Virus record (IMG/VR): IMGVR_UViG_3300035670_013237
Location: 150,001 to 160,384 of that record
Length of the DNA stretch: 10,384 bases
Strand: one strand, 5' to 3'
From: a virus
Under the pieces are notes generated by a model. It had not been told where the DNA came from, did not search any database, and worked only from the letters and a program-made list of their open reading frames with translations. A program made the position numbers and the translations under genes. The stretch's first letter is position 1. Every line of letters begins with the position of its first letter. Shown here one piece after another: positions 1,628-9,749 of the stretch.

Positions 1628-1645
1628 GAGTGATAAGGTTTGGAC

Positions 1646-3010
1646 ATGGACACTGTCATCGATATTCTTGAGTCGCTAGAATCAACTTCAGGATCTAACG
1701 CTAAACGAGATACTCTCGTGCGGCACAAGGACAATGCTCTGCTGCAGGGAGTTTTTGCTGCGGCACAAGATCCATACACGGTATATTACGTTAATAAGTT
1801 CAAAATGCCACATGCGTCTTCAGTTCCAAAAGCTGACGATGACACCGTCGACTCATTTTTGAGATTTTGTCACAAAGAGCTCTCGACACGTGCCATCACA
1901 GGTAACTCAGCTCGGAGCGCAGTCATTGAGAAGTTTAGTGCCATGTCCGCCCTTCAGCAGAAATGGTGTTTGCGTATTCTGTTGAAGAATCTACGGTGTG
2001 GCGTTCAGGACACCACTGTCAACAAGGTGTGGCCTGGTCTCATCAAGGGATTTGATGTCCAGCTTGCGACGACCCTGGGCGCCAGCCATGACCCCCAGAA
2101 GGGTATTGTGCTCAATGAGCGCCCGAAGTACCCTCTTCGTGCCGAACCGAAGCTTGATGGCCTCAGATGCATTGCTGTGAAGCGTGATGGTAAAGTCACC
2201 ATGTTTACCCGCAATGGAACTGAGCTTGATACTCTGCCGACGATCAAGGCAGTCCTCGAGGCGGCGACACACTACGACAATGTGGTTCTCGACGGAGAGG
2301 CCATGGGTGCGGACTGGAATGAGTCCGCCTCAGTCGTCATGTCCCGAAAGTTCGCCAAGGATGATTCAAATATCGTGTACCATGTGTTCGATGCAGTCCC
2401 GCTCAGCGACTGGACAGGACAGAGGGTCAATCTAAATCTTCCCTATAGCAATCGACTTAAACTGGTTGAGGGAGTCATGGCTGCCGTAGGGGTAGGACCA
2501 GTCCAGCAAGTCCAAGGTGTCACCGTCAATTCTGACGAAGAATTGCTGACATACTATGGGTTCACGACGCAGAAGGGATATGAGGGCATCATGCTGAAGG
2601 ACTTGTCCGCAGCTTATGCTTATAAGCGCTCAGACGCTGTGCAGAAACTCAAGCCCGTTACAACTTTTGAGGGAGTCATTGTGGGATGGTATGAGGGCCA
2701 GCGCGGCTCAAAGCGTGAAGGCATGTTCGGTGGGTTCAATGTCGTCCTTCCGAATGGTGTCATCACTCGTGTAGGTGGCGGTTTTACTGATGCTCTGCGG
2801 GCTGAAGTTCAACTCCTCGGCCCTGACACCTTTTGCGGTCGAATCATTGAGGTTGAGGGCCAGCCTGATCCGCTGACGAAGAATGGGTTGACGGTCGATG
2901 GAAAGATTCGTTTCCCGGTGTTTTCTAGGTATCGTGATCCGTCCGATGTTGATCCTAGGGTGATCGATGCGGGACGACAGTATGTAGCTAACCAGATTCA
3001 AGGAGACTGA
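1646..3010 (+). CDS. lig: ATP-dependent DNA ligase (DBD-like N-terminal region + nucleotidyltransferase + OB fold), 454 aa
   Basis: Covalent nucleotidyltransferase motifs are present. Motif I is EPKLDGLR (Lys codon 2150-2152). Also seen: VVLDGEAM (III), VYHVFDA (IIIa), EGIMLKD (IV) and AVQKLKP (V). The OB-fold-like C-terminus contains FEGVIVGW...GGFNV...VGGGFTD. The N-terminal KWCLRILLKNLRCGV resembles the Lig I-type DNA-binding domain. The ORF track starts at TTG 1640. ATG 1646 is preferred because TAAGG (1634-1638) sits 7 nt upstream. Confidence 0.93.
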   Translation: MDTVIDILESLESTSGSNAKRDTLVRHKDNALLQGVFAAAQDPYTVYYVNKFKMPHASSVPKADDDTVDSFLRFCHKELSTRAITGNSARSAVIEKFSAMSALQQKWCLRILLKNLRCGVQDTTVNKVWPGLIKGFDVQLATTLGASHDPQKGIVLNERPKYPLRAEPKLDGLRCIAVKRDGKVTMFTRNGTELDTLPTIKAVLEAATHYDNVVLDGEAMGADWNESASVVMSRKFAKDDSNIVYHVFDAVPLSDWTGQRVNLNLPYSNRLKLVEGVMAAVGVGPVQQVQGVTVNSDEELLTYYGFTTQKGYEGIMLKDLSAAYAYKRSDAVQKLKPVTTFEGVIVGWYEGQRGSKREGMFGGFNVVLPNGVITRVGGGFTDALRAEVQLLGPDTFCGRIIEVEGQPDPLTKNGLTVDGKIRFPVFSRYRDPSDVDPRVIDAGRQYVANQIQGD

Positions 3011-3011
3011 A

Positions 3012-3329
3012 ATGAGCTATGAACCGAGGGACATGATGGGTAACGCCATCGAAGTTGGAGACACGATCGCTTACGTTTCTGATCGTGGTGGGCCGTTTCT
3101 TACCCTGGGCAAGGTAATCAAGCTTGATGGGTACAAACAAATGATTCAAATCGCCCGATCTCACTCGAGCGGCCGCTCAGGCTCTTACAACAAGATTTCA
3201 AATGGGAATCGAAAGAAGTGGGTGTGGGACTCAGTCAACGAAACCGGCTACTATGCTGACACGCCTGCCGCACCAGTGTACGTGAGCATGACAGACCGCT
3301 GTCTGCTCATCAAGAAGGTGGTTACCTAG
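3012..3329 (+). CDS. hypothetical small beta-rich protein (SH3/KOW-like N-terminal pattern), 105 aa
   Basis: ATG lies 1 nt after the ligase stop, with AGGAG (3001-3005) 6 nt upstream. VGDTIAYV...LTLGKVIKL resembles a small beta-barrel. No family is recognised. Confidence 0.65.
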   Translation: MSYEPRDMMGNAIEVGDTIAYVSDRGGPFLTLGKVIKLDGYKQMIQIARSHSSGRSGSYNKISNGNRKKWVWDSVNETGYYADTPAAPVYVSMTDRCLLIKKVVT

Positions 3330-3362: not shown

Positions 3363-3417
3363 ACGCACTGCACTACTTTTTCGACAAGTTCGTTGATGAT
3401 TTAGGCAGTGCGTTTTT
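3363..3417 (+). terminator. candidate intrinsic terminator or structured RNA at the end of the plus-strand block
   Basis: ACGCACTGC (3363-3371) pairs perfectly with GCAGTGCGT (3405-3413), followed by a T-run to 3417. The 33-nt loop is much larger than in canonical terminators, so confidence is low. Confidence 0.3.
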
Positions 3418-3604
3418 CATTGACGAAAATTTTTTGTTATGTGTTGTGCAATGCCTGTTGGGTTGGGAGTACACTGTCAACATGTGGAAGGCAACGAATA
3501 CCGATTTCAACATAGAGAAGCGCCTCATTGTGTTTCTTCAGGAAAACCCTTTTTATGCGGAGGTGTCACGGCACATTCGTAAGATCGCTAAAGACACAAG
3601 GAGA

Positions 3605-3856
3605 TCAGGCAGCGGTTAGACCTAGTGCCTCGAGTGCTTTGGTCAATAAATAACTGTCATCACTTCCCCACTGATCATAATCAGATCCAGCTAGGGTAAA
3701 AGCTTCATTATGCAGGTGTTCGCCCGAGGCGCTTTGCAGAATGCAAAGAACGAGTACAGATCCGCCGGGACCCAGTTGACGAATGTTTACACCCATGATC
3801 TTGAGAACAGTTGCTGATTTACGAAAGAATGTCACTGGTTGAATTTCTGTTTGCAT
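3605..3856 (-). CDS. hypothetical protein, 83 aa (last gene of the minus-strand module)
   Basis: ATG is preceded by AAGGTG (reverse complement of 3861-3866), 22 nt after the upstream gene's stop. No recognisable motif. A cupin-like GEHLH stretch is too weak to call. Confidence 0.45.
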   Translation of the reverse strand: MQTEIQPVTFFRKSATVLKIMGVNIRQLGPGGSVLVLCILQSASGEHLHNEAFTLAGSDYDQWGSDDSYLLTKALEALGLTAA

Positions 3857-3878
3857 GTTGCACCTTGAATATAAGTAT

Positions 3879-4334
3879 TTATGCGGGGATTATTGGCCAC
3901 GCAAGTTCAAATGGGTTAGACTGGAGTGTGACGTCACGTAATTCTTGTCGATAAACTTGCCACTCAGATTTCTTCTCAGCTGTGAGCGGACTGTCAGAGA
4001 GCTGTGTCCAATCACTCTTGTAGAGTTTATGATTGCGTTCTTCTCGTATAGATGCCCACCTTGCTGATATACGTGCATCTATTTCCTCAGGGGGTGCTTG
4101 CGTCACAACCCATGCTTGAGTCCATCTTCCGCTGTTTGGGTCAATGACTGGCGTGCCCTCTGTAGTGTTCTGTGTATGGTTCGTTTCAGGCCTTGAAGTG
4201 CTGATGACAAGTGCATATTCTTGTCCCTCGATCAGGCCTCCCGTCCATCCGATGGGAAAACTCACATTAGGATGTTCCCTCCAAATATCGACGGGATAGT
4301 TGTTAATTGCTCCGTTATTGATCCTTGCGTACAT
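3879..4334 (-). CDS. tail-fibre assembly / tail assembly chaperone-like protein, 151 aa
   Basis: Strong SD GGAGGA (reverse complement of 4339-4344). The start overlaps the upstream gene by 20 nt. The N-terminus (INNGAINNYPVDIWREHPNVSFP) and C-terminus (IREERNHKLYKSDWTQLSDSPLTAEKKSEWQVYRQELRDV...WP) match the pattern I associate with phage tail-fibre-assembly/tail-assembly-chaperone (Caudo_TAP / DUF4376-type) proteins. Recognition is by eye. Confidence 0.65.
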   Translation of the reverse strand: MYARINNGAINNYPVDIWREHPNVSFPIGWTGGLIEGQEYALVISTSRPETNHTQNTTEGTPVIDPNSGRWTQAWVVTQAPPEEIDARISARWASIREERNHKLYKSDWTQLSDSPLTAEKKSEWQVYRQELRDVTLQSNPFELAWPIIPA

Positions 4335-4941
4335 CAGGTCCTCCGAGTGCTAAGAAAGCGGGTTTGGGCGCAGTTAGAAGTAGTTCTACTCTGCCATCGA
4401 CAAGCAGGGCTTTAGTTTGCTCGATGGCAGGTAATATGTGCGTCTCAAAGTCAGGATGTTGCCTCATTGAAGCGAAGTGATCGTGCGGTATTGTTCCTGC
4501 TGTGACGAGGAAGTTTACTGCCCTGTACTCTAGTTCGAGGCGCCATTCATCGCGCTGCGCCGCCTCATGCGCCTCAAGATCAGGTAGGTGTCCAAACTTT
4601 CGGTGTGGCTGTATCTTTGAGATGCAGTCATCAATGAATGCAAGTTCAGCCCTCGCCGCGGCGATGTTGCGCTGCAGTGTATCTGCGTGTGCCGTGATCT
4701 CTGATATGTCTGCCTGCGCCTTAAGTCTCTTGACTTCATCAGGGGATGATAAATTGCGCTCAGCTTTTATAAGCTTAGCACGAGTTCTAAGCGAGCTTGC
4801 TTCTACTTGTGCCAAAGCATCATTTCTTTCTTCACGAAGATCGCAGAGCAGAGAGTATGCACCATCAGCCGTGTGGCACGACCCAATTAGAAAGTGCTCA
4901 ATTTGAAAATGTGTATTGCGACGATTATTTTTTGCAATCAT
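4315..4941 (-). CDS. hypothetical coiled-coil protein, 208 aa ('MIAKNN' gene, the intact copy)
   Basis: Long clean ORF with an ATG start. The central part is heptad-like and helical (AQVEASSLRTRAKLIKAERNL...LQRNIAAARAELAFI). Its N-terminal 22 aa are echoed by two truncated copies upstream (4967-5050, 5928-5990). No family is recognised. Confidence 0.7.
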   Translation of the reverse strand: MIAKNNRRNTHFQIEHFLIGSCHTADGAYSLLCDLREERNDALAQVEASSLRTRAKLIKAERNLSSPDEVKRLKAQADISEITAHADTLQRNIAAARAELAFIDDCISKIQPHRKFGHLPDLEAHEAAQRDEWRLELEYRAVNFLVTAGTIPHDHFASMRQHPDFETHILPAIEQTKALLVDGRVELLLTAPKPAFLALGGPDVRKDQ

Positions 4942-4966
4942 ATAAGCTGGAAATGTACTCCATAAT

Positions 4967-5050
4967 CTAAGAAAAGTTTAGTGAGCATGAGCCGACAAGG
5001 AAATTGTCAATCTGAAAATCGGTGTTGAGGCGGTTGTTCTTGGCAATCAT
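4967..5050 (-). pseudogene. truncated copy (27 codons) of the 5' end of the MIAKNN gene
   Basis: Hand translation gives MIAKNNRLNTDFQIDNFLVGSCSLNFS*. This matches MIAKNNRRNTHFQIEHFLIGSCHT at 4941 in 17 of the first 22 residues, with 12 synonymous third-position differences. Its ATG overlaps the TGA of the 5047-5934 gene (ATGA). Confidence 0.5.
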
Positions 5051-5934
5051 AGGCCACCGGGAGTTGATGATGTCGAGTTCAGAAAGCCTCGGGCGGAACT
5101 AAGGCTCGTTCCATTTGCGACCGAATTACTCGAGAATGTATATTTCTCGCATGTGGAAACAAATGATCCAGTGCTTCCGCCTGCATAGATGCCGACTGTC
5201 GCATCACTGGCAGCTGTCAAAAACCCTCTTGCGTTTGCGAGGCTTGTTCCCGCTGCAACAGTATCCCCTGAATATGTGTATTTATCAGATGTCGCCACAA
5301 ATGGCGAGCCGCTTCTGCCTCCCGCGAAGATGCCGACTACGCTCGTTCCCGACGCGCCATGGTAATCTCTTGCAGTTCCCAACGCTGTTCCGCTCGAGAC
5401 TGTGTCTCCGCTGTAAGTGTATTTACTCACAGTGGTCACTGAGGTGTAACCTCCGGTAAAATAGCCAACAGTTGAATTTCCTGCCGATCCAATGCCAGAT
5501 TTCGATTGATTGATTGATGTCGTCGCTGCCGCAGTGTCGGTGCTGTAAGTGTATTTATCAGTGGTTTTTACCTCTACACCGGTATAGCCTCCGGCGAAAA
5601 TGCCAACAGTCAAAGTCCCGCACCCTGAAATGTCAGACCTTGCTTGCGATAAATTTGCCGAAGTAGAAACCACATCGGTAGAATATGTATAAATGTTTCC
5701 ATTTGCAACAAAGCCACTTATTCCTCCTCCGACAAATATCCCCTTCGAAAGATTTCCGGCTCCTCCTGGCCCCGTCTTGGCTGCAGACAAACTCGTTCCG
5801 AGCGTTCTGGAATCTGTAGAAAATTTATATTTGTCAACGGTGGCAACAGCCGAACCACCTGTGCCTGCGGCAAAATATCCAGAACCAGCGGCAGCCGGAG
5901 GTTGCTTCGCCAATAGCCACCGCAACATCACCAT
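5047..5934 (-). CDS. six-repeat Kelch-like beta-propeller protein, paralog 1 (295 aa); putative virion-associated receptor-binding/lectin module
   Basis: Six in-frame repeats of the form G[IY][FY]xGG ... [DE]K[YF]x[YF]S..[DN]..V...[ST]L..AR...G. The N-terminus MVMLRWLLAKQP is shared with paralog 2. GGAG lies 7 nt upstream of ATG 5934. The ORF-track start at 5958 is a TTG and adds 8 residues absent from the paralog. Confidence 0.8.
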   Translation of the reverse strand: MVMLRWLLAKQPPAAAGSGYFAAGTGGSAVATVDKYKFSTDSRTLGTSLSAAKTGPGGAGNLSKGIFVGGGISGFVANGNIYTYSTDVVSTSANLSQARSDISGCGTLTVGIFAGGYTGVEVKTTDKYTYSTDTAAATTSINQSKSGIGSAGNSTVGYFTGGYTSVTTVSKYTYSGDTVSSGTALGTARDYHGASGTSVVGIFAGGRSGSPFVATSDKYTYSGDTVAAGTSLANARGFLTAASDATVGIYAGGSTGSFVSTCEKYTFSSNSVANGTSLSSARGFLNSTSSTPGGL

Positions 5935-5990
5935 GACAATTCTCCGAAATTTGTACAAGAAAAGTCAGTGCTGTCGTTCTTTGCAATCAT
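5928..5990 (-). pseudogene. more decayed truncated copy (20 codons) of the 5' end of the MIAKNN gene
   Basis: Hand translation gives MIAKNDSTDFSCTNFGELSW*. It retains MIAKN..TDF...NF as in the 4967-5050 copy. Its ATG overlaps the TGA of the 5987-6925 gene (ATGA), and its stop overlaps the start of paralog 1. Confidence 0.4.
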
Positions 5991-6925
5991 GATAAATGTC
6001 CAGGGTTTGTGGATACTCCGGCTAAGCTATACCTTGCGGTTCCAAGACTCCCACCAGCTGCGACGGTGTTGGACGAGTAGGTGTAAACTTGGCTAGCTGA
6101 TTGATACGCGAATGATGAATTCAAGCCGCCGATGAAAACCGCAACAGATGAATTCCCAAACCCTGCATGAGCATTCACGGCATTTGTGAGAGCGGTCGCC
6201 GATGACCAAGCATTTGTCGAGAACGTGTATTTTTCACTCGTCGAAATGACTGACCCAGTATATCCGCCAGTAATCAAGCCGAAGCTATTATTTCCAGCAC
6301 TTGCCATGTTATATTTTCCGGTCGACAATGCTGTTGCCGATGTTACAGCGCCGTCGGAAAACTGATACTTGTTGTGTGTGGTGAAGTATACTGTGTCAGT
6401 ACCTCCGCCGGCGAAAAAGCCATGAGTTTGTGATGCGAATCCAGCCATAGCGCGTCGAGCAGTTCCTGTCAGGCTTGTTGCTGATGTGACCGAGTCAGTG
6501 TTATATGTGTATGACTCCGCTATCAGCGTATTGACGCTACTAAAAGTAGTGGTGCCACCTGCAAAATATGCCTTTTCGGAATTTCCTGCTGACACCAGAT
6601 ATGCTCGTGCGGTCGAAAGAGACGTCACAGACGAGACAGCGGATGTGGTATATGTAAATTTTTCAGAGGAAGAAACGACCGCCACTGATGATGGAGGCGA
6701 ACCAGCAGGCACTCCGCCTCCGGCTATTATTGCAAAAGAGAAATTCCCTGCAGATGCTGCGCCTTCCCTGCCAGTTGAAAGACTCGTGCTCGCCGTTCGT
6801 GAGTTGTTGGAGAATTGGTACTTATCGACATTGTTGAACACGACGTAACCGAAATTTGCGCCTGCTATGCACAGGCCGAAATTGTTCTGTGGCTGCCTCG
6901 CCAATAACCATCGCAACATCACCAT
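5987..6925 (-). CDS. six-repeat Kelch-like beta-propeller protein, paralog 2 (312 aa)
   Basis: Same six-repeat architecture and same N-terminal peptide (MVMLRWLLARQP) as 5047-5934. It starts 7 nt after the fibre gene stop. Confidence 0.8.
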   Translation of the reverse strand: MVMLRWLLARQPQNNFGLCIAGANFGYVVFNNVDKYQFSNNSRTASTSLSTGREGAASAGNFSFAIIAGGGVPAGSPPSSVAVVSSSEKFTYTTSAVSSVTSLSTARAYLVSAGNSEKAYFAGGTTTFSSVNTLIAESYTYNTDSVTSATSLTGTARRAMAGFASQTHGFFAGGGTDTVYFTTHNKYQFSDGAVTSATALSTGKYNMASAGNNSFGLITGGYTGSVISTSEKYTFSTNAWSSATALTNAVNAHAGFGNSSVAVFIGGLNSSFAYQSASQVYTYSSNTVAAGGSLGTARYSLAGVSTNPGHLS

Positions 6926-6932
6926 AGCCGGC

Positions 6933-9440
6933 TCACTTGCTGTCCGTCATGAGTGTGACTCCTCGCCATGTTGTTCCTCCGTCGTCTGTGACGAATGAGA
7001 GGACGTCCACACCCGACGCAGTTAGAGTTGGTGCTGTGCCGCCCGGCCATTTAACTGATAAGGGCCACTGTTGCACGCCCGTGCCACCATTCGTTAATTC
7101 CAGTGTAACCACCACCGCACCTGACGCAGGAACATTGGAGAAAGTCCACGTTAATCCACCAGATGCGGTCTTTGTGAAGTACCGTGCGTTGTTAGAGAGA
7201 TCCATGTCAGAAGCGCTCACGGCATTGACTGACATGTCGACATTGGCGGTGATAGTCACAGCACCATTGGAACCTGTGGAAGTTATTATATTAGGCCCAG
7301 CAATAAGATAAGGTGTGTTGTCAAACAACCTAGTCAGAGATCCTGTTATACCTGTCGCTGATTTGATTGTTCCACTGACAGTAACATCACCAGTGAATAG
7401 AGATTTTTCAGTGCTCTGGCCTATCGCACCGCTGACAAAGAAGAACGTATCGGACTTGAGTGAACCGGAACCGACTAAGACAGCACTTTGATTGACAAGG
7501 AAGATGTCACTCCTGTCTGCATCTAAATCGCCCGTTCCATTTCCCACTATAAATAATGAATCAGTATTGTCGCGCTTGTTGTACTGCCCAACCGTATTCT
7601 GGCCCGATCCTGATGCAATGGTTCCTATACCTGCAGCGTGTGAATACCAGCCAAATGCTTCGCACGCTTGGCCTTCGGCATGCGAATATGCGCCCCATGT
7701 GTGTGTGTTGAGACCCTCTGCATGGGAATATTCTGCGCCCGCATGTGTATATGCTGTTGCACCCTCTGCATGGGAATAGTCTGCATCTGCGATTGTACCA
7801 TTCCCCTCAGCATGGGAGCTGTATGCATTCGCTTGTGTGTTGAAGCCCTCTGCATGTGAATATTCACCTGCAGCGAGAGCACCATTCCCCTCAGCATGCG
7901 CGCCTGTATCAGTCGCTTGTGTGTTACGGCCTTCGGCATGCGATGCAAGCCCCGTTGCTGCTGCCTCATATCCTTCGGCATGTGAGTGGTCACCCCCAGC
8001 CGAGGTAAGAAGCCCTTCCGCATGTGCGCCCAACCCTGATGCTGTCGGTCCGCCGAGTCCTAAGCTATCATTTCTCGCACCCTCAGCATGTGAATAATCA
8101 CCAGACGCAGTTGTGTCATAGCCCTCAGCATGTGAATAATCGCCAGACGCAGTCGTAGAAATACCCTCAGAATGTGCGCCTATGACAGATGCTTGTGTAG
8201 CCTGTCCCTCTGCATGGGAATAATCACCTGACGCTGACGTTCCAATTCCTTCAGCGTGCGATCCCACGCCAGATGCTGTAGGGCCATTTAAAAGTAGTGT
8301 GACAAGATCTCCTGCACCTTCGGCATGTGAATACTGCCCGCTCGCTGTCGTATTGTAGCCTTCAGCATGTGAGTGCAGGCCTGACGTTATAGTCTGATAT
8401 CCTTCTGTGTGTGAGCCTTCGCCTTGCGCATCCGTGCTGACACCCTCAGCATGCGACCACTTTCCAGTAGATGTGGTGTTACTCCCCTCAGCATGAGAAG
8501 ATTCTCCCACTGACGTGGTATTATCACCTTCAGCATGTGACCATTCTCCCTCCGCTGTTGTCTGATAGCCCTCTGTATGAGCACCTGTGGCAAGGCCATC
8601 CACGCTGGTTTCTTGGCCCTCTGCATGCGAGTAATTTGCTAAAGCTATTGACTGGTAGCCTTCAGCATGTGCCCCCACACCCTCGACCTGTGTTTCATAA
8701 CCCTCAGCATGCGAATAATCGCCATTTGGTGACGTGTATGTGCTATAGCCTTCAGCATGTGAACCCTCTCCAAGTGTTTGAGTGCTCACGCCTTCTGCAT
8801 GCGACCATTTTTCTGTAGAAGTAGTACTATTTCCTTCAGCATGAGAGGATTCGCCTGTTGCGATGGTGTTATCACCTTCTGCATGCGAATACATGCCTGT
8901 GGCTGTCGTCCCATAACCTTCAGCATGTGAATAATTTCCATCTGCACTTGTAGTAGAACCCTCAGCATGTGTACCAATTGTTGATGCCTCAGTATTGAAC
9001 CCTTCAGCATGTGAATAATCTCCAACTGCTAGGCAGCCGCTGCCTTCAGCATGTGAATAAACGCCTGTTGCTCTTGCTTCAAATCCGTTTTCTAGAGACC
9101 CTGTCAAATAAACCGTGTCATTTGCGAATGTAAAGTTTGCTGATCCCCCAAATGCCCCTGACCCACCATTATATTGCACACTTGTGTCTGGGCTTGCGGG
9201 CAGGCCAGTGCCACCAGCAGCTTCAATAGTAATTGATCCGTCTATCTCTTCTGTGAGTGTGATGTTCGGGCCTGCATTTAGGTCGACTGACAAGGTCACA
9301 TCTCCCTCTGTGCCCCCTCCTGTGAGACCAGTGCCTGCTATCACAGCCGTGATGTCACCGCCCACCGCCTGCAGCACAGGCACTGCGCGGTAAAAAGAAT
9401 AGGTCTTCCTAAAGCGATTTTTATCAATTTTCTTCACCAT
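6933..9440 (-). CDS. tail fibre / adhesin with YadA-head-like (Hep_Hag, left-handed beta-roll type) repeat array, 835 aa
   Basis: N-terminal fibre-like motifs are present (AGTGLTGGGTEGDVTL, SVQYNGGSGAFGGSANFTF). There are 33 copies of the [YWS]SHAEG core, about 14 aa apart. The array closes with NTVGQYN...LFIVGNGTG, as is typical after such repeats. A 230-aa non-repeat C-terminus follows. Confidence 0.9.
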   Translation of the reverse strand: MVKKIDKNRFRKTYSFYRAVPVLQAVGGDITAVIAGTGLTGGGTEGDVTLSVDLNAGPNITLTEEIDGSITIEAAGGTGLPASPDTSVQYNGGSGAFGGSANFTFANDTVYLTGSLENGFEARATGVYSHAEGSGCLAVGDYSHAEGFNTEASTIGTHAEGSTTSADGNYSHAEGYGTTATGMYSHAEGDNTIATGESSHAEGNSTTSTEKWSHAEGVSTQTLGEGSHAEGYSTYTSPNGDYSHAEGYETQVEGVGAHAEGYQSIALANYSHAEGQETSVDGLATGAHTEGYQTTAEGEWSHAEGDNTTSVGESSHAEGSNTTSTGKWSHAEGVSTDAQGEGSHTEGYQTITSGLHSHAEGYNTTASGQYSHAEGAGDLVTLLLNGPTASGVGSHAEGIGTSASGDYSHAEGQATQASVIGAHSEGISTTASGDYSHAEGYDTTASGDYSHAEGARNDSLGLGGPTASGLGAHAEGLLTSAGGDHSHAEGYEAAATGLASHAEGRNTQATDTGAHAEGNGALAAGEYSHAEGFNTQANAYSSHAEGNGTIADADYSHAEGATAYTHAGAEYSHAEGLNTHTWGAYSHAEGQACEAFGWYSHAAGIGTIASGSGQNTVGQYNKRDNTDSLFIVGNGTGDLDADRSDIFLVNQSAVLVGSGSLKSDTFFFVSGAIGQSTEKSLFTGDVTVSGTIKSATGITGSLTRLFDNTPYLIAGPNIITSTGSNGAVTITANVDMSVNAVSASDMDLSNNARYFTKTASGGLTWTFSNVPASGAVVVTLELTNGGTGVQQWPLSVKWPGGTAPTLTASGVDVLSFVTDDGGTTWRGVTLMTDSK
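7626..9059 (-). repeat. in-frame 42-nt (14-aa) coding repeat array, 33 units (x-x-S-H-A-E-G-x-x-T-x-A-x-G)
   Basis: I counted 33 H[AST][EA]G cores between aa 128 and 605. Most are 14 aa apart, some are 15-17 aa apart, and two units are expanded to 23 aa and contain GPTASG[VL]G. On the plus strand the repeat appears as recurring CCTTCAGCATGTGAATA-type strings. Confidence 0.9.
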
Positions 9441-9509
9441 CGTGCAGCCCCTATACGATCAAAACTTAGCCATACGTATTCCTCGAGTGATCCAATCAGC
9501 GCGTGAAGT

Positions 9510-9515
9510 TATAAT
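9510..9515 (+). promoter_or_regulatory. consensus -10 hexamer TATAAT upstream of the 9525 gene
   Basis: Perfect TATAAT ends 9 nt before ATG 9525, which would give a nearly leaderless mRNA. The -35 is poor (GTGATC with a 17-bp spacer). Confidence 0.3.
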
Positions 9516-9524
9516 TTCCATCTC

Positions 9525-9749
9525 ATGGAAGAAAAAAATAAAACAGCAACTTGGCTCACGAGTCTCATTGCAGCAATCATTGTCTTTACACTCATAGCTT
9601 TCATTTTCCACCAAACATGGAATGTGGCGCTTGTCCCCGCGCTCGAACTCAAAAATCAGATCAACTTTGAGCAGGCATGCTGGTTGACAATGTCACTTTT
9701 TATGCTGGGTGCCATTCAACGCCTCTACACAGTCAAGCATAAAGAATAA
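9525..9749 (+). CDS. small membrane protein with two predicted TM helices (74 aa)
   Basis: The hydrophobic segments are WLTSLIAAIIVFTLIAFIF and ACWLTMSLFMLGAI, with a charged C-terminal end (KHKE). Holin-like topology, but no lysin is seen nearby, so no holin call is made. Confidence 0.6.
   Translation: MEEKNKTATWLTSLIAAIIVFTLIAFIFHQTWNVALVPALELKNQINFEQACWLTMSLFMLGAIQRLYTVKHKE

Follow-up and report, generated by a model that had tools for sequence, protein, structure and literature searches.

Two diverged six-bladed Kelch propellers behind a phage tail-fibre gene, and the partner gene that recurs with them

Proteins with Kelch domains have attracted notice as an unusual feature of jumbo phages, and mass spectrometry has detected one of them, CBB_552, in virions (PMC5259590); the function of phage Kelch proteins was given as unknown in 2020 (PMC7760394). 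In a late-2025 preprint, gp298 of phage phiKZ was described as a 335-amino-acid Kelch protein of low abundance in virions, which is dispensable on PAO1 and is needed for plaques on, and adsorption to, two wild isolates; a transposon mutant fails to adsorb (PMC12676376). Precedents exist for Kelch proteins in phage virions and in adsorption, and these proteins are not a new phage fold class. In this study, we analysed a stretch of 10,384 nucleotides (the window; positions 150,001 to 160,384 of the IMG/VR virus record IMGVR_UViG_3300035670_013237), in which two tandem Kelch-like genes lie directly behind a tail-fibre gene. A preliminary description of this stretch had stated that Kelch propellers are not among the well-characterised phage receptor-binding folds, which was overstated in view of CBB_552 and phiKZ gp298 (PMC5259590, PMC12676376). 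What is added here is the size and regularity of a Kelch subfamily, its organisation in arrays, and an uncharacterised neighbouring gene, designated p208.

The phiKZ protein is comparable as a small stand-alone Kelch protein of a jumbo phage that is associated with the virion and acts as a conditional host-range factor on P. aeruginosa isolates (PMC12676376), whereas it lies outside any fibre operon and not in an array. It was rejected as an ortholog of the window proteins (hhalign E-value (E) 0.35), and gp297, encoded downstream of gp298, was rejected as a p208 homolog. The best viral fold match was gp110 of BcepSaruman, a Burkholderia jumbo phage of 264 kb. This 313-amino-acid 'kelch-motif containing protein' matched with a template modelling (TM) score of 0.89 at 28% identity (approximately 30% by tblastn), and its neighbour gp109 is a p208 homolog with 51% identity. 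The BcepSaruman locus differs in having a single Kelch copy, a divergent gene pair and no annotated fibre adjoining, and no function of gp110 or gp109 has been reported in the literature. Fold matches in BFVD that are annotated as 'virion structural protein' came from Phabio, Noxifer and PhiPA3. A beta-propeller is likewise the receptor-binding module of a tail appendage in the receptor-binding proteins of staphylococcal and related phages (phi11 Gp45 type, P68 and NF5; PMC12917162); however, those propellers have five blades, belong to a non-Kelch family and are domains inside trimeric proteins, whereas the window encodes free-standing monomeric products in an array. We found no paper describing a Kelch-p208 pairing or Kelch arrays, in a literature search that covered subscription journals incompletely.

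The preliminary description had claimed two tandem genes at 5047-6925, encoding 312 (paralog A) and 295 (paralog B) amino acids. Both were confirmed as intact minus-strand open reading frames (ORFs), and the products share 37% identity across their full length (E 5e-48). The length of paralog B is counted from the ATG that gives MVMLRWLL, which has a GGAG 8 nucleotides upstream; the longest start, a TTG at 5958, gives 303 amino acids. Each protein consists of six repeats, as had been claimed, with a spacing of 44-54 amino acids, and has six strands of the hydrophobic-x-GG type and six of the [KIVS][YF]x[YF][STN] type. A hydrophobic stretch followed by GG (or AG) is present in 6/6 repeats of both paralogs, as is the Tyr/Phe strand (K-Y-x-Y-S), and the Arg or Lys of the Kelch motif is found in most repeats. 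The Trp position of the motif is not kept: when aligned to KLHL12, the sequence has Val or a different residue there. In Pfam, paralog A gave only sub-threshold Kelch matches (best PF24681, with 14.7 bits where the cut-off is 50; Kelch_3, with 14.3 bits where it is 22) and paralog B gave none, and four of 44 family members matched Kelch_1 at E <= 0.01. Both paralogs matched phrog_19111, with E 5e-18 for paralog B and 6e-15 for paralog A.

A family profile (A1) built from the 44 members was compared with the PDB. The profile matched KLHL12 with E 2.3e-15 (positions 19-274) and KEAP1 across positions 16-299, and the other matches (designed SAKe6 proteins and KLHL3/17/20) were nearly full length. 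Paralog A alone matched the KLHL17 Kelch domain by phmmer (E 2e-9). These matches to solved Kelch domains place the repeats far beyond chance. The AlphaFold2 model of paralog B computed with A1 had a predicted local distance difference test (pLDDT) score of 94.8, a predicted TM score of 0.91 and 24 strands, with low confidence for the N-terminal peptide (pLDDT 58). When this model was searched against the PDB with Foldseek, KLHL and KEAP1 Kelch domains were found with TM scores of 0.85-0.89, a root-mean-square deviation of approximately 2 Å and E of approximately 1e-22, and the top 50 matches were all six-bladed Kelch domains (KLHL, KEAP1 and designed Kelch proteins). The Kelch-like propeller proposed earlier was thereby borne out by profile, model and fold search. 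The chain begins with a hydrophobic-GG (B-type) strand and finishes with an A-type strand, so the C-terminal strand must join the first three strands of the chain to make up blade 1, as it does in KEAP1 and KLHL proteins; this closure, inferred from strand order and homology, agrees with the circular 'velcro' layout that the preliminary description had suggested.

The window proteins resemble the KLHL/KEAP1 Kelch domains in the six-bladed fold, the logic of closure and the putative B-C/D-A binding face. They differ from these and from the poxvirus BTB-Kelch proteins in lacking BTB and BACK domains and the classical Trp and in falling below the Pfam Kelch thresholds. No BTB or BACK domain was found by Pfam in the window propellers, in which 12-16 residues precede the first propeller strand. 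We conclude that they form a divergent Kelch propeller subfamily without BTB or BACK, and we regard the fold as settled. An N-x-T that precedes each GG strand was considered as a glycosylation sequon and rejected, since its counterpart in KEAP1-type blades is the A-B turn.

Every gene in window positions 3605-9440 is on the minus strand, and the transcription order is fibre, Kelch paralog A, Kelch paralog B, p208, assembly chaperone and an 83-amino-acid gene. The features are as follows.
6933-9440, minus strand: tail fibre, 835 amino acids (phrog_25468, E 3e-118; residues 739-831 match phrog_9017 'tail fiber protein', E 5e-10)
5987-6925, minus strand: Kelch paralog A, 312 amino acids, ATG start (six repeats; KLHL17 match; phrog_19111)
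5935-5990, minus strand: degenerate remnant of a p208 5' end (ATGATTGCAAAGAAC, which aligns with the true p208 start)
5047-5934, minus strand: Kelch paralog B, 295 amino acids (AlphaFold2, Foldseek and phrog_19111)
4985-5050, minus strand: second remnant of a p208 5' end, 22 codons (MIAKNNRLNTDFQIDNFLVGSC)
4315-4941, minus strand: p208, 208 amino acids, all-helical, outside described families (downstream homolog in 53/70 distinct loci)
3879-4334, minus strand: gene of the tail-fibre assembly chaperone type, 151 amino acids (PF16778, Phage_tail_APC, E 1.4e-17; phrog_4912 'tail fiber assembly', E 9e-18)
3605-3856, minus strand: 83-amino-acid gene, the last small gene on this strand (an ORF in the window; called as a gene in the related locus L084)

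Paralog A starts 7 nucleotides past the fibre stop codon, and the assembly-type gene overlaps the end of p208. Both this spacing and the downstream assembly-like gene (PF16778) had been reported in the preliminary description and were confirmed, whereas the intervening 208-amino-acid p208 gene had been overlooked. The assembly-type gene occupies an equivalent position in the related loci L007, L013 and L087. The product of the 83-amino-acid gene had no family match in Pfam or PHROG, and this gene is possibly the end of the operon. Scans of 3400-9700 for promoters and terminators gave nothing over shuffled background, which is compatible with one operon, yet proves nothing. A 14-residue H[AST]EG repeat occurs 32 times in the fibre, whose C-terminal approximately 100 amino acids form a tail-fibre domain that matches families such as phrog_9017. 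These repeats resemble the head repeats of trimeric autotransporter adhesins, with weak NCBIfam matches to EmaA, Ata and BimA.

The whole window had no match among phages by megablast. A protein database search gave 130 matches, all metagenomic. By tblastn, paralog B had no phage match at 1e-5, and the matches of paralog A were weak, namely BcepSaruman, BcepSauron, S-SKS1 and two at E 0.1. A scan of viral contigs yielded 77 loci, and more loci were added from contig look-ups and a genome scan. Copy number in related contigs varies from 1 to 4: in a first ORF-based count of 72 distinct loci, one Kelch gene was present in 32, two in 19, three in 19 and four in 2. The closest relatives have four copies each, in one run (L087) or as 2+2 (L007).

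Wherever it was annotated, the gene immediately upstream of the Kelch genes encoded a tail-fibre protein. A tail-fibre gene is directly upstream in the window, L007, L010, L013, L061, L086 and L087, and its product varies in kind: 858 amino acids with phrog_8745 in L061, 1518 amino acids in L013, a collagen/fibritin type in L086, and fibres with the window-type C-terminal domain in L087, L007 and L010. In L007, L010, L035 and L087, a homolog of this C-terminal domain is encoded immediately ahead of the Kelch array. The upstream fibre of L011 is collagen-like, with a C-terminal phrog_9017 domain as in the window fibre; the propeller in this locus (6626-10843) ends a 1405-amino-acid RCC1-repeat protein placed after that fibre. 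In L008 (8573-10858), a 761-amino-acid protein whose N-terminus matches a tail protein family (phrog_1887) ends in the propeller, and its gene directly follows the tape-measure gene. In L002-L004, the Kelch gene lies downstream of the tape-measure gene and distal tail genes. A location in the tail-fibre or distal-tail module accordingly holds for the window, L002-4, L007, L008, L010, L011, L013, L061, L086 and L087, and almost every locus examined had its homologs within a tail-fibre module rather than consistently outside structural modules, with BcepSaruman as the one clear exception. The fibre-Kelch-p208-chaperone arrangement recurs in unrelated phages. The locus and its approximately 70 relatives represent a divergent Kelch subfamily, invisible to Pfam, which jumbo phages, siphophages and a very common environmental phage group routinely carry in their tail-fibre operons and which can be amplified there. 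A propeller was also seen as the C-terminal domain of a 1620-amino-acid protein (phrog_4474) in L054 (8489-13351).

The ligand-binding face of KEAP1 and KLHL propellers is the one formed by the B-C and D-A loops. When A1 was mapped onto the predicted strands, column entropy was highest in the B-C (2.75 bits) and D-A (2.60 bits) loops, and the A-B (2.03 bits) and C-D (1.84 bits) loops on the opposite face were no more variable than the strands (1.9-2.3 bits). The B-C loops also hold 12.8 of the approximately 15 inserted residues per sequence. The near-invariant columns of the family (Gly24, Gly70, Tyr172, Gly206 and Gly253) are Gly or Tyr only and structural. No conserved polar residue was found family-wide among the A1 columns, which argues against a common catalytic site.

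The shared N-terminal peptide claimed in the preliminary description is present as MVMLRWLLA[RK]QP in the first 12 residues of both paralogs. The DNA encoding it is identical at 31/36 nucleotides, and 4/5 of the differences are synonymous, which points to selection on the peptide. Among the related loci, it is lineage-specific and yet common to all paralogs of one phage, reading M[VFIL][MR]..LL[AC]K in the window as well as in L007 and L087, and MLEMLL in L086; the common three-gene arrays have larger N-terminal domains, some of them fn3-like. In the loci searched, no protein other than Kelch proteins carried the window-type peptide. It was rejected as a signal or lipoprotein peptide because it is too short and the window copies have no lipobox. 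The C-terminal tail of the propeller is conserved by clade as SSTPG[GH][LF] or SNGTxGVN.

The partner gene was examined across 70 distinct loci by six-frame search with a hidden Markov model. A p208 homolog was directly downstream of the Kelch gene in 53 loci; in the other 17, it was adjacent and divergent in BcepSaruman, elsewhere in the locus in 6 and absent in 10, of which several are truncated and two encode fusion proteins. In most cases, -4 to +31 nucleotides separate the Kelch stop from the start of p208. A reverse search from p208 found Kelch genes upstream in L085, L086, L087 and four of six loci from metagenome-assembled genomes (MAGs). In the two others, p208 is located after a 449-amino-acid protein (phrog_3245; L090 6592-8621) and after a 1091-amino-acid protein of no family (L092 4629-8648), both unrelated to Kelch, so p208 does not depend strictly on a Kelch partner.

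The p208 protein is more conserved than the propellers, with 40-74% identity across loci whose propellers share 30-50%. It has 15 invariant positions, among them Cys22, Thr24, Asp26, Glu132, Trp133, Arg160, His162 and Pro163, and His23 is nearly invariant. AlphaFold2 predicted it confidently as all-helical (pLDDT 91.9). Foldseek against the PDB gave nothing significant (best E 0.59), the sequence profile against the PDB gave only coiled-coil noise (E 0.01), and no match was found in Pfam, PHROG, NCBIfam or PADLOC. An exhaustive profile search yielded 275 clusters at 50% identity, which were all stand-alone proteins of approximately 120-284 amino acids among the 150 matches listed. BcepSaruman and BcepSauron were the only carriers among 50,697 phage records, and six MAG contigs were the only ones among 185,579 species genomes. 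Linked to Kelch arrays and with no known relative, p208 is a well-defined target for functional study.

The intergenic sequences contain traces of p208. At the stop codon of each propeller gene, an overlapping ATG (as ATGA) begins a copy of the p208 5' end. Past paralog A, this remnant is degenerate, approximately 56 nucleotides long, and reaches the start codon of paralog B; past paralog B, it comprises 22 codons followed by approximately 45 nucleotides of unrelated spacer and then by the intact p208. Both remnants break off near the same codon. On the simplest reading of these sequences, the ancestral unit would have been one Kelch gene and p208 with overlapping stop and start codons, and the Kelch gene together with the first approximately 66 nucleotides of p208 would then have been duplicated or inserted, leaving one functional p208 per array.

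A four-gene block with the same pair is present amid cellular genes in a Bdellovibrionales MAG (JBFWQY010000009.1; L085 2302-10633, the same as L089). The block encodes proteins of 201 amino acids, 1907 amino acids (with a weak T7-tail-fibre N-terminal match), 351 amino acids (Kelch) and 210 amino acids (p208), and is flanked by GH114 upstream and by peptidase S9 and cytochrome bd oxidase downstream. The N-terminus of this Kelch protein, MKRTSSCAKQPCGRRRFLTRIGAYLGVFAGS...ASAS with RRRFL, looks like a twin-arginine (Tat) export signal, and p208 in this block has no signal. A putative Tat signal on the Kelch protein and none on p208 would fit an extracytoplasmic binder with a cytoplasmic helper. 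For the phage arrays, the likeliest role of p208 is that of a factor for assembly or attachment that works in the cytoplasm and serves the whole array, as suggested by the one copy kept per array, the translational link to the last Kelch gene, the Bdellovibrionales copy without a signal and the occasional pairing with other putative tip proteins; this is the weakest part of our account.

Taking the fold, the loci and the variation together, we lean, with modest confidence, towards the propellers being interchangeable host-surface-binding subunits of the tail-fibre apparatus, which fits their context. Each propeller would dock on the virion via its short N-terminal peptide, probably at the conserved C-terminal domain of the fibre, and the face carrying the long, hypervariable B-C and D-A loops would be turned to a ligand on the host surface. 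Two to four diverged paralogs might then provide alternative or additive specificities, and the conserved flanks, namely the coding sequence of the N-terminal peptide upstream and the p208 5' end downstream, could aid duplication and exchange. p208 would be made from the same message, often with the ATGA stop-start overlap, and one copy would serve the array.

Several points weigh against this assignment. The presence of the propellers in virions and their binding are argued from context and from analogy to phiKZ gp298 and CBB_552, and gp298 is an analogy within the Kelch superfamily and not an ortholog. The BcepSaruman Kelch/p208 pair, from the only cultured lineage with both genes, is divergently oriented among metabolic and hypothetical genes. 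Long loops outvary strands in any family, and the pattern of variation is only weakly diagnostic. An anchor of 12 residues is unusually short for a receptor-binding protein, and its model confidence is low (pLDDT 58). Furthermore, p208 follows non-Kelch proteins in 2/6 MAG loci, so its role cannot be specific to the folding of Kelch proteins.

The location of the BcepSaruman pair outside a recognisable structural module also speaks for a different explanation, in which neither the Kelch proteins nor p208 are structural and both act inside the cell, the propellers by binding host proteins and p208 as their effector or partner enzyme. Poxvirus BTB-Kelch proteins bind host proteins during infection. 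The far stronger conservation of p208, in which a metal site or a catalytic one might be made up of Cys22, Thr24, Asp26, His162 and the near-invariant His23, would agree with such a role, as would a p208-Kelch linkage that outlasts a change of gene orientation. We nevertheless consider it unlikely: the propellers have no BTB or BACK and only 12-16 residues before the first strand, dozens of loci hold the genes between fibre and fibre-assembly genes, fusions to tail proteins exist, the bacterial homolog carries a putative export-type signal, and PADLOC gave no matches.

An action of the propellers as enzymes on host surface glycans, like the sugar mutarotase NanM or a depolymerase, instead of as passive binders appears improbable. 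Bacterial NanM is a six-bladed Kelch enzyme and shares their fold, the annotation of phiKZ gp298 includes an N-acetylneuraminate epimerase-like domain, and glycosyltransferase and 2-oxoglutarate (2OG)-Fe(II) oxygenase genes lie near some arrays. The near-invariant positions, however, are Gly and Tyr only, with no conserved polar residue, the paralogs differ most in the very loops that would build an active site, and the top 50 PDB fold matches were protein-binding KLHL/KEAP1 and designed Kelch domains, not NanM. We likewise give little credence to the propellers being scaffolds or chaperones of fibre assembly, or decoration proteins with no part in host recognition. A position between the fibre gene and the assembly chaperone gene often holds chaperones, but diverging arrays of two to four copies would be unusual for chaperones, which are seldom C-terminal domains of large tail proteins, and a dedicated chaperone-type gene (PF16778) is already there.

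If the propellers do serve in host recognition, their variable loops and copy number would predict the host range of many uncultured phages, and a small monomeric propeller would be attractive as an engineering scaffold. A wider proposal can be advanced only tentatively, and we hold it to be rather doubtful as a whole: the Kelch array and p208 may constitute an undescribed two-component fibre-tip system, widespread in uncultured phages, in which p208 (a new all-helical family with invariant Cys/Thr/Asp...His) would load or mature monomeric propeller adhesins onto trimeric fibres. Cassettes would be swapped through recombination between the sequence of the N-terminal peptide and the p208 5' end, and the pair would have been taken up by predatory Bdellovibrionales next to the 1907-amino-acid fibre-like protein, with a propeller exported by the Tat route.

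A number of further observations were made in the related loci. In L061 (9686-13445) and approximately 30 similar loci (e.g. L023, L041 and L056), which belong to the very common environmental phage group, three Kelch genes of approximately 395, 315 and 340 amino acids stand in a fixed order. The product of the first matches fn3 weakly and below threshold (E 0.005; 17.4 bits, with the cut-off at 25), and the second and third carry an N-terminal G-x-W-x-L-x-x-Q...G-x-W-P motif; p208 comes next, and two genes on lies a 2OG-Fe(II) oxygenase (phrog_81). The Synechococcus phage S-SKS1 (HQ633071.1; L006 8644-9869) has six places matching the Kelch family, and p208 was not found in it by tblastn. In L087, two short fibre-like proteins (1332-1925 and 6169-6981) with the same N-terminus (VGYKRYVTNSVTILSQSV) flank the four Kelch genes and p208, which suggests alternative fibres with one common attachment site. 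On the plus strand of the window, positions 1640-3329 encode an ATP-dependent DNA ligase and a DUF7205 protein, and a sigma-70-type factor gene lies just beyond the window edge (seen in L084, 2607-6659).

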